A stretch of 64,000 nt of DNA. Origin: a virus. Location: IMG/VR virus record IMGVR_UViG_3300035683_000002, positions 9,117 through 73,116 of that record; one strand, given 5' to 3'. The notes under the pieces are model-generated. The model was not told the origin of the DNA, did no database searches, and worked only from the letters and a program-made list of their open reading frames with translations. Position 1 is the stretch's first letter, and every line of letters starts with the position of its first letter. The position numbers and the translations under genes were made by a program. This document shows, piece after piece, positions 26,445 through 48,289 of this stretch.

Positions 26445-26579
26445 CTAGCCGGCCAGAATGACCGCAATGCCGCCGACAAGGCCGACAAACAGCACGATCC
26501 GGCCGAGCGCGGAGCCGATCTCGTGCAGCACGTCGCGCCAGTCGTAGCGCAGGGGCGGGGTGCTCGCCTCGGCTGTCAT
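26445..26579 (-). CDS. Small membrane protein
   Basis: MTAEASTPPLRYDW...RIVLFVGLVGGIAVILAG; operator-like CACTCCACTTTGTG at 26597 upstream. Confidence 0.45.
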   Translation of the reverse strand: MTAEASTPPLRYDWRDVLHEIGSALGRIVLFVGLVGGIAVILAG

Positions 26580-26661
26580 GGGCTCATGGTCTTTCCACTC
26601 CACTTTGTGTCCCGGTCTCGACGGGCAGGGGTCGGGACGCCTCCCTGCATGACCCCCCGGC

Positions 26662-26925
26662 CTAGTCGCCGGGGGGGTTCGCGCGTGCGCGCCGGATGGC
26701 CTGCGCCGCCCGGAAGGGACTGATCTTCCCCCCGAGGGATTCCAGCACGAGCGTCCAGTCCTCGTCGGTGAGGTGGGGCTCGGCACCGGCCTGGCGCAGG
26801 TAGGCGCGCACGCAACTGAAATAGGCCGCGGGGCATACCCGCGCCGGTCCGCTCCCTTCGATGAAGAAATTGCGGACCGCCTCGAGCAGCTCCTCGTCAG
26901 CGATGTAGGGTGGCTCGCGCTCCAC
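26662..26925 (-). CDS. Cassette hypothetical protein
   Basis: 87 aa, directly behind 26929-27165. Confidence 0.5.
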   Translation of the reverse strand: MEREPPYIADEELLEAVRNFFIEGSGPARVCPAAYFSCVRAYLRQAGAEPHLTDEDWTLVLESLGGKISPFRAAQAIRRARANPPGD

Positions 26926-26928
26926 CGG

Positions 26929-27165
26929 TCAGCCGGCGTCGACGACCAGCTTCACCCTCCACCCGAAGCTCGCCCAGCGGCCGAGCGTCGGCTCGGTGTC
27001 GCCGCGGAGCGTGACGATCAGCGTCTCGCCGTTCGGCGGCGTCGGGTTGAAGGATGCGGAGATCGTGACGCTGTCTTCCGGCCGCGCGGGCCAGCACCTG
27101 TCGTGACGCAGCATGTCGATCGGGAAGCTGGCCCCGTGCGGGGCCACCACCGCGAAGGTCGTCAT
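26929..27165 (-). CDS. Cassette hypothetical protein
   Basis: ATG directly after an element; SFPIDMLRHDRCWP. Confidence 0.65.
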   Translation of the reverse strand: MTTFAVVAPHGASFPIDMLRHDRCWPARPEDSVTISASFNPTPPNGETLIVTLRGDTEPTLGRWASFGWRVKLVVDAG

Positions 27166-27251
27166 GTCTGAGGTCCTGTGCCCCCTCTGTCGACGGGCAT
27201 CGCCCGGGGGCTGAGGCTGATGCGGGCCGGGGGCGCGAGCGCCCCTCGGCT

Positions 27252-27545
27252 TCAGATGCTGCGGATCAGGTCCTGGATGGCCTCGACGCGCAGCTGGTGC
27301 GTGAGCGTCAGCCTGGCGATCCGCTTGCGGAGCTTGGCCCGGCGGGCCTCCCGCTCGGCATCCGCCGCCCTCCTTTCGAGGTAGGCGCGGCGGCCGCGGA
27401 GGTCCTCCGAGATCCAGCGCCGCGCGATCGCCGCGCGGCGGAGGTTGATGAAGCCCATCATGCGGTCGCCGGCGGCGAAGGCCTCGCGGGCCTCGGCCAT
27501 GTCACAGCGCCACACCTGGGTGATGCGCTGCGCGAGAATGCTCAT
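27252..27545 (-). CDS. Cassette hypothetical protein (helical)
   Basis: Bounded by elements on both sides. Confidence 0.65.
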   Translation of the reverse strand: MSILAQRITQVWRCDMAEAREAFAAGDRMMGFINLRRAAIARRWISEDLRGRRAYLERRAADAEREARRAKLRKRIARLTLTHQLRVEAIQDLIRSI

Positions 27546-27630
27546 GGGCGGTGTCCGTGCCCCCTCCTTCGACGGGCCAGGCCCGGGGGCATAGGCGTGG
27601 CGGGGCCGGGGGCGCGAACGCCCCTCGGCT

Positions 27631-27858
27631 TCAGCGCCGGCGGCGGACCGGCGTCAGCAGCTCGTGCGGCATGACACCGAGCGCGTCGGCGAGGGCCTCG
27701 AGGGTGACGAGCGTCGGATTGCGCTCCCCGGCCTCGAGGCCGGACACGACCTGCTGCGAGATGTCGGCACGCTCGGCGAGCTGCGCCTGCGTCATCCCGG
27801 CCTCCTTGCGGAGGCGGTGTATGTTGGCGGCGAGAAGAGCACGAATGCCGCTCTTCAT
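27631..27858 (-). CDS. XRE-family HTH protein
   Basis: LAANIHRLRKEAGMTQAQLAERADISQQVVSGLEAGERNPTLVTLEALADALG. Confidence 0.85.
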   Translation of the reverse strand: MKSGIRALLAANIHRLRKEAGMTQAQLAERADISQQVVSGLEAGERNPTLVTLEALADALGVMPHELLTPVRRRR

Positions 27859-28145
27859 CGTCCGGACCTCCATCCCCGCCCCTTACGAGCCGGCGTGTGC
27901 TGGACGGCGGCGAGCAGCTCGACCGGGTCGAAGCCGAGCGCTTCGGCCAGATCCAGCAGCTCGATCACCTCGATCCGTCGCGTGCCGCTCTCGTACTTGG
28001 CCACGAAGCTCTGCGGGCGGTGCAGGCGTGCTGCCAGCTCGGCTTGCGTCAGCTCGGCGAGCTGGCGGCGCACGATGAGAAGCTCGCGGAGCCGATCGCG
28101 TCGCGGGTCAGGCCGAGTGCCTGGCCCTCTGCGATTGGATGTCAT
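27855..28145 (-). CDS. XRE-family HTH protein
   Basis: LTQAELAARLHRPQSFVAKYESGTRRIEVIELLDLAEALG. Confidence 0.85.
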   Translation of the reverse strand: MTSNRRGPGTRPDPRRDRLRELLIVRRQLAELTQAELAARLHRPQSFVAKYESGTRRIEVIELLDLAEALGFDPVELLAAVQHTPARKGRGWRSGR

Positions 28146-46099: not shown

Positions 46100-46376
46100 G
46101 GGGACGGGTCTCCGTTAGCGCTCCCTCTGATCTTGACGAACAGGTCGGCGGGAGCAGACCGGGGCCTGCGGGTCCCTCGGAGCGCGGGGGGCACTCCGAG
46201 GGCTTCGGCGGGGTTGCGAGAGCCTTCCGCCTTGCCCCTTCACCGGCGCGACCGCCTCGTTGGGCAGTCCTGATGGCGGCCTAACCGGGCCTCTCCGGGG
46301 GAGAGGAGATCCGGTAGCGCGCGACGCTCGGTGGGGGGTCTGAAGCGTGCTGGGGTCTCGCCGCTTCAGTGATCCA

Positions 46377-46404
46377 GATATGGTTGCTTGCGTAACAATT
46401 GCAA
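46377..46404 (-). promoter_or_regulatory. Putative sigma70 promoter
   Basis: Minus strand TTGCAA-N16-CATATC. Confidence 0.5.
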
Positions 46405-46519
46405 GGCCGATGGGCGAGAAAAGCGAGGAAATCTGCCACTTTCCGGCGATCTTGCGCTCTCACGCTGCGCCTTCCATGCGAAAGCCCCGCCCACCGTGCT
46501 GGTGAGCGGGGCTGTCGTC

Positions 46520-46969
46520 TCAGATGCCGGCCCAGATGACCTCTTTGACCGTGCTGGGGCGACGGTCGACCCAGGCTGCGACGGCGCGCGGATGCCGCTT
46601 CCGCACGATCTCCTCGGCCACCGGCATCGCCACCAGCAGCGCGGCCGCATCCGGCTCGCCTTCGGGCAGGCTGAGCTCGTTCTCCACGTAGCTCTGCAGG
46701 TCGTCGAGGTTGATGCCGATCGGCTCGCCGGGGCACCGGCCAGAGGCCGCGTGCAGCACGTATTTCGCGATCTGCAGCGCCAGGCGCATGACCGAGGCCT
46801 CGGCGGTGACGGCCATGTCGGCTTCGTCGACCACCGCGCGGGGATCGCTCGGAAGGGCGCCACCGGCCGCCAGCCAGGTCTTCAGGTCGTCGAGGGCGGC
46901 AATCGCCTCGTCCCGATCCCCGTCGCCGGCGGCGCTGAGGAAGCGGGCGAGGCACGCGTTCGGATCCAT
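46520..46969 (-). CDS. Cassette hypothetical protein
   Basis: MDPNACL...LKTWLAAGGALP, a phage-type N-terminus. Confidence 0.65.
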   Translation of the reverse strand: MDPNACLARFLSAAGDGDRDEAIAALDDLKTWLAAGGALPSDPRAVVDEADMAVTAEASVMRLALQIAKYVLHAASGRCPGEPIGINLDDLQSYVENELSLPEGEPDAAALLVAMPVAEEIVRKRHPRAVAAWVDRRPSTVKEVIWAGI

Positions 46970-47055
46970 GGTGGATCTCCGGCCCCCTGGATCGACGGGC
47001 GTTGCCCGGGGGCTGAGGCAGACGCAGGGCCGGGGCGCTGGTCGCGCCCGCGGCT

Positions 47056-47394
47056 TCATGCGGTTCGGTCGAGCTCGGCGAGCTGGCGCTCGATGCGGGT
47101 GAGCTTGCGCTGCAGGAAGGCGTTCTGGGCGGCACGGCGGCGCGCGGCTTGGAACCGCAGCGACGCGTCGATGTCGGCCTTCTCGGCCGAGCGCTTCCGG
47201 TTGCCATCGACAGCCGAGGGCATCCAGTAGCGCGACGGGCCTCTCTGCCGGATCTCCTGCCACCGCTTGCTGACCGCACTTTCCGCGGTCGCGGCGAGGG
47301 CCTTCATCTCCTGGCGGATCCGCTCCGCCGCCCTCTCCAGCTGCTGCCGGTGCGCCGATGCCGGTGGTCGGTTGTGGCCGATCCCGGGCTTCAT
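47056..47394 (-). CDS. Cassette hypothetical protein
   Basis: MKPGIGHNRPP...; ATGA-coupled. Confidence 0.55.
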   Translation of the reverse strand: MKPGIGHNRPPASAHRQQLERAAERIRQEMKALAATAESAVSKRWQEIRQRGPSRYWMPSAVDGNRKRSAEKADIDASLRFQAARRRAAQNAFLQRKLTRIERQLAELDRTA

Positions 47395-47675
47395 GCCGGC
47401 GCCTTGGCCTTGTCGGCCGCCAGGCTCTTCCAGAGGCTCACCTCCATCAGGCGGACCATGATGTCCTGCGCCTGATCGACGCAGGCCTTGCCGTAGGGCG
47501 GCGGGTGCATGCACGCATGCTCCTGCGCCCTCGACCAGTACCGCATGGACACGTCGAGGTCGGCGTCCTCCGGCCAGCGATTGGCCTTCACCGCCTCCCC
47601 GATGCGCCGATGCGCGGCCCGCACCTCCTCGCTCTGCGGCGGGAAGGCGCGCACCTTCTTCGGGTCGAACTCCAT
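47391..47675 (-). CDS. Cassette hypothetical protein
   Basis: 94 aa, directly after an element. Confidence 0.6.
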   Translation of the reverse strand: MEFDPKKVRAFPPQSEEVRAAHRRIGEAVKANRWPEDADLDVSMRYWSRAQEHACMHPPPYGKACVDQAQDIMVRLMEVSLWKSLAADKAKAPA

Positions 47676-47761
47676 TGGATTGTCCGGTGCCCCCTCGGTC
47701 GACGGGCATGGCCCGGGGGCTTAGGCACACGCTGGGCCGGCCCCGAAGGGCGCGGCTTCTC

Positions 47762-48289
47762 TCAGAGCGGCATTGGCGGATCGTCGATCCGCAGCACCTC
47801 CACCTCGTCAAACCCCTCGGAGGGCTCCGGCCGCACATAGGCCGGGATCATCCCCTCGAGGATCGACAGCGGGACGGCCCGTCCGTCGAGCTCGCGCGCC
47901 TTGTTGCGGGCGACGATGACGGTGCGGGGCGCCTCGAAAGCCACCGCGACGCGCCGGTGCATGCCGGCGTAGCGCATTACAATCGAGCGGGTCTTCGGGG
48001 TGAGGTTCAGGCGGTCGACGATCACGTCCCCGCTGCTCTTCAGCGCGCGGGCGGCCTGCTGCGTGACGGCGTTGAACAGCCGCCGCAGCTCGAAGATGCG
48101 GATCGCCTCCGCGTAGGTGACGCCGAGCGCCGTGGCGGCGTCGGTCACCAGGTCGTCGGGCGAGCACACCGTGACGGTGCGACCGGCCGCGCGCAGTTCC
48201 GCCGCCTTGTGCTCTCGCCAGGTCGTCTTCCCGGTGCCGGGAAGGCCTGAGAGCACGTACAGCGTCGGGGCCTCGGGATTGGGTGTCAT
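47762..48289 (-). CDS. P-loop kinase (AAA_33 / polynucleotide-kinase-like)
   Basis: LYVLSGLPGTGKTTW, VIVDRLNLTPKTR, RNKAR...VP.....M...Y..P...EGF. Confidence 0.8.
   Translation of the reverse strand: MTPNPEAPTLYVLSGLPGTGKTTWREHKAAELRAAGRTVTVCSPDDLVTDAATALGVTYAEAIRIFELRRLFNAVTQQAARALKSSGDVIVDRLNLTPKTRSIVMRYAGMHRRVAVAFEAPRTVIVARNKARELDGRAVPLSILEGMIPAYVRPEPSEGFDEVEVLRIDDPPMPL

Follow-up and report, generated by a model that had tools for sequence, protein, structure and literature searches.

What is a hairpin-bearing element of about 90 bases doing in almost every gap between the small leftward genes of an uncultured phage? The question is raised by a stretch of 64,000 bases (the window in what follows), namely bases 9117-73116 of the complete virus record IMGVR_UViG_3300035683_000002, whose genome (100,689 bp, direct terminal repeats, 72% G+C) we call G000. 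Here we find that the element is a structured form, devoid of a promoter, of the regulatory cassettes that recur in the hyperplastic regions of phages. As for its action, we hold it evenly poised between right and wrong that it works at the RNA level, as a cis-acting connector of ~90 nucleotides (nt) for the internal cistrons of the leftward early operons, in which a first hairpin (hairpin 1) would serve as a cap and a second (hairpin 2) as a recognition or processing site.

A covariance model, R1, built from 10 copies with the structure set by hand and run unfiltered over the window, returned 22 copies, all on the minus strand (36-93 bits, E values of 1e-6 to 1e-18), with 17 in array 1 (27167-36876) and five in array 2 (44292-47762). 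An earlier note on this DNA had counted 22 minus-strand copies in two clusters and had seen no full copy elsewhere in the window. Both statements are borne out, as the best R1 match below the 22 copies reaches 24.8 bits (44041-44091, mostly hairpin 1) and is followed by noise; the remaining 36 kb of the complete genome contain no copy in the R1 search. The copies, with the genes that they precede and two imperfect relatives, are as follows.

e01, 47676..47762, minus strand: R1 73.8 bits; upstream of genes of 94 and 112 amino acids (aa)
e02, 46968..47060, minus strand: R1 71.2 bits; upstream of a 149-aa gene
e03, 45621..45723, minus strand: R1 42.4 bits; long hairpin 1; upstream of a 92-aa gene
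e04, 45248..45334, minus strand: R1 36.0 bits; upstream of a 79-aa gene
e05, 44292..44378, minus strand: R1 63 bits; upstream of a 68-aa gene
e06, 36787..36876, minus strand: R1 82.9 bits; upstream of a 110-aa DUF5983 gene (Pfam) and an 85-aa gene
e07, 36108..36201, minus strand: R1 55.5 bits; upstream of a 181-aa gene
e08, 35476..35568, minus strand: R1 91.9 bits; upstream of a 251-aa gene; hairpin 1 the same as that of e11
e09, 34631..34723, minus strand: R1 86.6 bits; upstream of a 190-aa gene
e10, 33969..34058, minus strand: R1 58.1 bits; upstream of 79-aa and 119-aa genes
e11, 33288..33378, minus strand: R1 90.7 bits; upstream of a 121-aa gene
e12, 32833..32924, minus strand: R1 51 bits; upstream of a 130-aa gene of the Phage_L5_gp82 family (Pfam)
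e13, 32354..32444, minus strand: R1 79.3 bits; upstream of an 84-aa gene
e14, 32010..32102, minus strand: R1 81.1 bits; upstream of a 69-aa gene shared with the sister phage G004
e15, 31708..31799, minus strand: R1 63.7 bits; upstream of a 460-aa methyltransferase-like gene shared with G004
e16, 30234..30323, minus strand: R1 78.4 bits; upstream of an 80-aa gene
e17, 29892..29990, minus strand: R1 51.7 bits; upstream of 81-aa and 78-aa genes
e18, 29328..29417, minus strand: R1 48.5 bits; upstream of a 206-aa gene; compensatory GCCUCC/GGAGGC in hairpin 2
e19, 28628..28717, minus strand: R1 73.7 bits; upstream of a 128-aa gene
e20, 28150..28242, minus strand: R1 62.8 bits; upstream of two XRE-type helix-turn-helix genes (Pfam)
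e21, 27545..27635, minus strand: R1 86.5 bits; upstream of a 97-aa gene
e22, 27167..27256, minus strand: R1 92.7 bits; last copy, upstream of 78-aa and 87-aa genes
46100..46206, minus strand: degenerate 23rd copy in the 5' leader of a 126-aa gene (sequence reading; 2-mismatch pattern match)
44030..44091, minus strand: partial or variant copy after the last cassette (R1 24.8 bits; repeat family D19)

Read along the sense strand, a copy begins with GAAGC, which overlaps the stop codon of the upstream gene or starts no more than 9 nt past it. Hairpin 1 follows directly (10-14 G/C-rich pairs, with a 4-nt loop in most copies), then CCCGC, a C-rich linker of ~8-12 nt, and hairpin 2, which comprises an outer stem GCCCCC/GGGGGC, an inner stem GGGY-N3-GCCC, a loop of variable sequence and a one-sided 3' bulge formed by an unpaired GUCGA and 2-5 free nt; the 3' end consists of 2-4 nt, a GGA Shine-Dalgarno sequence and the ATG. 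The anatomy of two hairpins with an invariant unpaired TCGA, as first sketched from the letters, proves essentially right, in that TCGA is unchanged in all 22 copies and standard pairs occupy 98% of the pair cells, against 47-55% when the partners are slid. Every downstream gene starts with ATG (22 of 22), and the distance from TCGA to that codon, with in-frame upstream ATGs discounted, falls within 22-26 nt in 20 copies, the two outliers measuring 30 and 39 nt. As had likewise been described, each unit holds one small gene (15 units) or two (seven units); in the latter the second gene always overlaps the first via ATGA or GTGA.

The claim that the element fills nearly every gap of the arrays stands for the 22 copies and gains the degenerate 23rd at ~46100-46206, in which GAAGC, hairpin 1 and CCCGC are kept and hairpin 2 has decayed, leaving no G-run. 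It does not extend to 44860-44994, the only array gap without an element, which has a terminator and a promoter instead. In the partial copy at 44030-44091, a hairpin 1 that is 94% identical to that of e02 is followed by a different small hairpin and then by GCCCGTCGA, again with no G-run. Downstream of e22 the genes are tightly packed.

Relatives were gathered from IMG/VR by a motif pattern scan and by terminase searches, and they form a small clade.

G001, 82.9 kb: large terminase (TerL) 70% identical to that of G000; 16-19 copies of the same element
G004, 92.3 kb: TerL 63% identical to that of G000; 11 copies of the same element
G002 (IMGVR_UViG_3300049811_000692), 105 kb: TerL 59% identical; no R1 match, ~30 copies of a different repeat

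The copies of G001 and G004, like those of G000, form one array on each side of the replication module, at the same two genome positions, and the three sets of copies can be read together. Hairpin 1 is selected for structure only and is free in sequence; compensatory changes occur at eight of its 10 pairs among the 22 G000 copies, and over 48 copies from G000, G001 and G004 all 10 of its pairs covary. Counted over the whole element, 97% of the cells in these 48 copies are paired. Hairpin 2 is near-invariant in G000, where one compensatory C-G to U-A change is found (e18), and is essentially one sequence across the same 48 copies, in phages whose core proteins are 30-70% identical and whose synonymous sites are saturated. 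This sameness points to sequence-specific purifying selection on hairpin 2 beyond structural selection alone, and the constraint on its sequence appears far stronger than that on any phage protein. The compensatory change in e18, together with a G001 copy in which the outer stem of hairpin 2 is one base shorter on both strands in matched fashion, argues for base pairing and against a double-stranded protein site. Furthermore, the pair closing the inner stem is C:G in 35 copies and U:G in 12, with never a purine on the 5' side, as sense-strand folding would have it. Taken with the single orientation, the register with stop and start codons and the Shine-Dalgarno sequence inside the element, this closing pair favours the sense strand, or RNA, as the acting form.

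Transcription of the arrays is marked by signals of another kind.

37528..37555, minus strand: sigma-70-type promoter TTGATT-N17-CATATA where array 1 starts; the first gene, of 191 aa, lies downstream
46377..46404, minus strand: second promoter of the same type, TTGCAA-N16-CATATC, within array 2 (sequence reading)
44912..44939, minus strand: third promoter of the same type, in gap 44860-44994, with a short-U-tract hairpin upstream
46479..46513, minus strand: U-tract hairpin of canonical terminator-like form, following the e02 cassette (sequence reading)
43666..43703, minus strand: canonical intrinsic terminator with a GC stem and a five-U run, at the end of array 2 (sequence reading)

The three promoters share one pattern, TTG-N19/20-CATAT (the exact N20 form was found twice, against 0.05 expected by chance), and all three are located where the gap has no full element. 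The element-bearing gaps all lack the promoter and U-tract terminator signals of this phage, the stable hairpin 1 has no U tract, unlike the operon-end terminators of G000, and a strict consensus scan of array 1 (26400-38000) gave no sigma-70-like promoter and no U-tract terminator. Because promoters and terminators are found only in gaps without a full element, the arrays sit inside polycistronic operons equipped with AT-rich promoters of sigma-70 type and with U-tract terminators of their own. The three promoter-proximal genes do without a full element: in front of the one that heads array 1 there is a bare GCCCGTCGA, another has the decayed copy and another none. The element is a feature of internal cistrons, 17 array-1 copies standing behind a single promoter, and its absence from first cistrons argues against a generic translation enhancer. 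This complementarity between promoters and elements is compatible with punctuating, or reading through, a polycistronic message.

The exceptional gap, 44860-44994 on the minus strand, is a classical moron-like junction, with a hairpin carrying a short U tract and then the promoter; its segment from Shine-Dalgarno to ATG, CCGGACAATCC, is almost the same as that of e01, as if transcription signals had replaced the 5' part of an element. Adjoining the first promoter is a CACA-N6-TGTG-type repeat (37601-37622, repeat family D12), which recurs at 26344, 26594 and 41735.

The genes framed by the elements mostly have no family (the exceptions being DUF5983, Phage_L5_gp82, the methyltransferase-like protein and two XRE regulators), and the first two array genes encode acidic proteins without family. 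Few array genes have a homologue in any sister phage. G001 and G004 carry almost entirely different cargo between conserved elements, the comparison of related genomes that the earlier note had proposed, and this outcome supports its picture of a modular accessory-gene platform, which proves to be hypervariable. The step from one phage to the next can be seen between the first array-1 gene (36872-37447) and the 181-aa gene (35564-36109), which have orthologues in G000 and G001. In G001 one element lies between them; in G000 the interval holds e06, a two-gene cassette (36200-36786) and e07, and the indel between the two phages comprises exactly one cassette plus one element. A strain variant of G000 from a second metagenome run (X2) shows patchy divergence that switches at elements.

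26900-32062: 2 differences (0.04%) between strain variant and G000
34660-35517: 0.7%
35538-36418: 6.4%
36418-36821: replaced

The replaced piece is the cassette of the G000/G001 indel. In addition, e08 and e11 have identical hairpins 1 and the partial copy at 44030-44091 bears that of e02, which means that copies exchange sequence. The idea that the element serves as a recombination handle agrees with the one-cassette indel and the strain mosaic at elements, and nothing beyond ordinary homologous exchange was seen; the turnover is compatible with homologous recombination between repeats and requires no site-specific mechanism. Two insertions also mark the strain variant, one of 24 nt (an in-frame length) after 40093, in a replication protein, and one of 11 nt after 43972. 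Array 2 opens with a gene (47762-48289, minus strand) for a P-loop kinase (AAA_33, polynucleotide-kinase-like) that is conserved in G004, an RNA- or nucleotide-end-modifying enzyme atop an operon rich in structured RNA elements.

The different repeat of G002, here type B as opposed to the type A of G000, G001 and G004, occurs in ~30 intercistronic copies at 63.8-88.4 kb on the minus strand and has three hairpins. Its layout runs from a variable hairpin 1 through CCCGC, a 9-bp hairpin, an unpaired CCAGU(CG) and a 6-bp hairpin ending in a G-run to CGAAGGA, its Shine-Dalgarno sequence, and ATG; CCAGUCGCG is invariant, and covariation is strong in both conserved hairpins (CG 19/UA 10/GC 1 and UA 15/CG 8/GC 7). 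The two types have in common hairpin 1, CCCGC, a hairpin followed by an unpaired GUCG, and a G-run held in a helix with a C-run right before the Shine-Dalgarno sequence. What differs is the location of that C-rich partner. Type B is probably homologous to type A in rearranged form, and the two look like one system with two specificities.

Beyond these phages the element appears, so far, confined to one small clade of uncultured phages. The pattern scan of IMG/VR gave no multicopy occurrence outside the clade, and a metagenome scan gave only chance singletons among the matches listed. Among 401 sampled alphaproteobacterial genomes, a sample outside which the actual host may fall, the motif was a singleton in one and never multicopy, and a host REP-like family was set aside on this count. 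The comparison with known RNA families, also proposed earlier, came out negative: Rfam 15 gave no match at gathering thresholds in the 64 kb, and array 1 searched at E<=5 gave three unrelated weak matches, none of them on an element. Hammerhead, hepatitis delta virus and tRNA-like readings did not fit either (by eye and with ARAGORN).

Several known systems nevertheless resemble the element in part. The RNase III sites between T7 early genes are hairpins, conserved and with an internal loop, that separate the cistrons of an early polycistronic message; RNase III cuts on the 3' side of the loop, so that the message upstream ends in a hairpin and the following one starts with a short leader. They have ~20 bp or more of stacked helix (about two turns); hairpin 2, with 6+4 bp and a one-sided bulge of 7-10 nt, is shorter than classical RNase III substrates. 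Repeats of the REP/BIME and Correia types are likewise GC-rich intercistronic hairpins after stop codons with a conserved short motif beside a palindrome, and they can stabilise upstream mRNA. However, these are host families of hundreds of copies in both orientations, mobilised by RAYT/Y1 and out of register with start codons, whereas the element keeps a strict orientation and spacing, with no Y1 gene and no host copies found. Integron attC arrays also combine one structured site per cassette, structure in part conserved over sequence, and unrelated small genes; the element has no IntI or other tyrosine recombinase beside it, lacks the R"/L"/L'/R' architecture and carries the translation signals of the next gene.

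The closest parallels come from two phage families. PeSLs (promoter-early stem-loop cassettes) occur in ~50 copies per genome in T4-type phages (Arbiol et al., 2010, PMC2839356; Comeau et al., 2014, PMC4122927), where each combines a strong sigma-70 consensus promoter, an AT-rich upstream region and a transcription-terminating stem-loop, and recombination between copies gives single-gene indels and replacements (PMC2839356; PMC4122927). Like them, the element is repeated, spans the gap from a stop codon to a Shine-Dalgarno sequence and start codon ahead of small ORFans in hyperplastic regions, contains a G/C-rich stem-loop, and bounds indels and replacements between relatives. Unlike them, it has neither sigma-70 boxes nor an AT-rich upstream region, and its conserved block folds into a hairpin whose pairing is backed by compensatory changes. 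The SAS/ESAS repeats (start-associated sequences) of Cluster K mycobacteriophages, with function still unknown, number 11-19 co-oriented copies per genome in the non-structural half only (Pope et al., 2011, PMC3203893), the 13-nt SAS motif, GGGATAGGAGCCC, lying within 3-8 nt of start codons (PMC3203893). They share with the element a conserved block that takes in the ribosome-binding site and lies within a few nt of start codons, and upstream inverted repeats whose consensus differs between subclusters, much as types A and B do. The ESAS hairpin has little support according to its authors, departures being uncompensated (PMC3203893), whereas pairing in the element is strongly supported; moreover, SAS/ESAS lack a stop-proximal hairpin 1 and stay with a gene family, whereas the element bounds variable cargo. 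In G000 the SAS motif gives four matches at 2 mismatches, against 2.9 expected, and none at an element. Without a sigma-70 promoter or a SAS motif, the element fails the defining features of PeSL and SAS/ESAS. It appears to be no member of PeSL, SAS/ESAS, attC or REP, resembling PeSLs in genome evolution and SAS/ESAS in placement. The earlier note had failed to match it to PeSLs, T7 RNase III sites or attC, and the promoter scan, recombinase searches and Rfam, all negative, agree.

How might such a connector work? Hairpin 1 would cap or insulate the upstream cistron, protecting its 3' end or marking the boundary, and hairpin 2 would be the recognition site of a trans-acting factor, with an endoribonuclease, an RNA-binding protein and the transcription or translation machinery as candidate classes. 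The factor could cut in the unpaired GUCG bulge, or license expression of the next cistron. Each acquired gene would thereby gain a standard, self-sufficient 5' adaptor, with no need for co-evolved stop/start overlaps, and as a side effect 22 direct repeats with 40-60 nt in common would offer homology for gain, loss and replacement of cassettes, an exchange that the RecE-like exonuclease and ERF-like annealase of the phage could assist.

A number of observations weigh against this connector reading. In a test with shuffled elements, the predicted accessibility of the Shine-Dalgarno sequence and AUG was 0.42 with and 0.42 without the native element (Wilcoxon p 0.87), and this unchanged value leaves a pure insulator role, in which the hairpins just keep the ribosome-binding site open, without in-silico support; that role was dropped. 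Apart from the closing pair, G.U (13) is not commoner than A.C (11), so that wobble pairs fail to separate RNA from single-stranded DNA, and wobble asymmetry as proof of RNA was given up, holding at one pair only. No candidate trans-acting RNA-binding protein or RNase was found among the phage proteins, and most of the conserved small proteins have no family. The G000 sequence is contained only in DNA runs (two, both from biocrust) and matched by no RNA run. Contigs also break at repeats, so that the strain breakpoints are not placeable to the base.

A more specific version of the connector, which we put forward tentatively and consider doubtful, makes hairpin 2 the operator of a dedicated post-transcriptional regulon, in which the bulged hairpin and its unpaired GUCG are recognised by an endoribonuclease or an RNA-binding protein, encoded by phage or host. 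The early transcript would then be cut into cassette-sized messages, or all 22 accessory units would be switched together, leaving the core genes of these operons unaffected. The versions in sister phages would have co-evolved and might be orthogonal, type A in G000, G001 and G004 and type B in G002.

Other readings draw on the same observations. A layout of two hairpins, of which the second is conserved, and a confinement to internal cistrons would also fit antitermination or read-through, with hairpin 1 as a weak terminator lacking a U tract and hairpin 2 as a nut- or put-like RNA that, alone or with a phage protein, carries polymerase past the next hairpin 1 and so gives timed or graded array expression. 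Lambda nut and HK022 put are indeed hairpin RNAs that act in cis, and the bare GCCCGTCGA before the first gene after the array-1 promoter suits such a scheme. We nonetheless think antitermination unlikely: the processive antiterminators known require a single site or two in an operon rather than 22; hairpin 1 lacks a U tract in a phage that does end its operons with U-tract terminators; the loop of hairpin 2 varies freely, whereas the boxB loop is the recognised part; and no N- or Q-like protein was found in the phage. Transcription could instead be reset at each element, hairpin 1 terminating and the hairpin-2 region acting as a DNA promoter for an unrecognised sigma or phage factor, so that each cassette is its own transcription unit. 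The order of stop codon, hairpin, conserved block, Shine-Dalgarno sequence and start codon, in a hyperplastic location, mirrors PeSL (PMC2839356), and the G-run ~20 nt upstream of the ATG could be a start site. Compensatory stem changes are not expected of a promoter, however, the conserved block has no -35/-10-like hexamer and no AT-rich stretch, the actual TTG-N19/20-CATAT promoters are located elsewhere, and profile searches (including Pfam and PHROGs) found neither a T7-type RNA polymerase nor a sigma factor in the complete genome, all of which makes a terminator-promoter very unlikely. Narrower promoter candidates were also dropped, namely sigma-70 for want of sigma-70-like hexamers, an antisense TCGACGG likened to a Caulobacter -35 box because the would-be -10 falls in the variable linker, a sigma-54-like GGCAC with no -12 element after it, and phage RNA polymerase or N4-like hairpin promoters, there being no polymerase in the large proteins or the whole genome and no sigma factor.

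Two further readings place the element on DNA. It might be a single-stranded DNA hairpin site for recombination of the attC or REP/HUH kind, or for lagging-strand priming, its link to gene starts being secondary. A hairpin 1 conserved in structure only is reminiscent of attC and REP/IS200-type sites, as is the invariant tetranucleotide that adjoins a hairpin; the wobble statistics are compatible with DNA, cassette-level indels are present, and a conserved gene resembling nucleases or Holliday-junction resolvases lies at 40926-41447. Against this, searches of the complete genome found no tyrosine recombinase (PF00589; control genomes all matched), no serine recombinase and no Y1 HUH transposase (PF01797), and attC R"/R' cores are absent from the element. 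Nothing about a recombination site calls for a Shine-Dalgarno sequence inside it or for a distance of 22-26 nt to the ATG in 20 of 22 copies, and arrays on the same strand either side of the replication module misfit bidirectional lagging-strand priming; we rate a single-stranded DNA site as quite improbable. Least of all do we credit a selfish or neutral repeat of MITE or REP-like character that spread through intergenic gaps with no role for the phage, despite its being multi-copy, intergenic and hairpin-rich and despite the signs of copying within the genome (the shared hairpin 1 of e08 and e11, the partial copy). Such a repeat would not be expected in one orientation and in two early operon regions only, with none in the other 36 kb, nor in exact register with stop and start codons; its hairpin 2 is kept across phages with saturated synonymous sites, and it is not multicopy in the 401 alphaproteobacterial genomes, in IMG/VR outside the clade, or in the metagenome matches listed.

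It is in their accessory regions that phages keep most of the unknown genes for host takeover and counter-defence, and to our knowledge the gain of such genes together with their immediate function is known in detail only for T4-type phages, through PeSLs. Here a very different lineage, very rich in G+C, appears to meet that need with a connector that is structured and carries no promoter. Should a specific factor process or bind the element, the latter would represent a new RNA motif and a new control of internal cistrons, its covariance model would be a search handle for accessory-gene islands in uncultured phages, and it would be a natural candidate where the genes of GC-rich synthetic operons need insulating. 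Were the regulon version to hold, the synthetic RiboJ/Csy4 insulators would have a natural equivalent in hairpin 2, and foreign genes would be expressed on arrival through a plug-and-play standard. Types A and B in sister phages provide natural material for a specificity swap.

The wider genome supplies some context for the phage and its host.

52606-54156: large terminase
56764-58632: portal protein
37819-39384: DnaB helicase
25311-26369: RecE-like exonuclease
24197-25399: ERF-like annealase
19446-20153, minus strand: homologue of GcrA, an alphaproteobacterial cell-cycle regulator (PF07750, E 4e-15)

The closest cultured terminases, at 40% identity, are those of Rhizobium phages, and together with the GcrA homologue they suggest a host that is probably alphaproteobacterial. 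G000 is possibly a phage-plasmid. Its DNA is present in two biocrust metagenome runs, and an exact look-up of the DnaB gene recovered only the same genome again (the metagenome contig NCBI JAXMNH011925843.1 and one Logan contig), with no additional strain variants. Besides being a host clue, the GcrA homologue is a possible switch between early and late transcription. The gene at 40926-41447 (minus strand) is the sole leftward gene within the rightward replication module; it is present in all four sister phages at 35-48% identity and has weak PHROG matches to endonuclease and Holliday-junction-resolvase families. Within the replication-protein gene, a 12-nt tandem repeat (GGGGACGTCTCC-like, three units; repeat family D14) is found at 39894-39948. 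Finally, the 1211-aa head-associated protein encoded at 60458-64000 (plus strand) combines an InPase-like domain (PF18823, E 8e-39) with a Mu-F-like domain.

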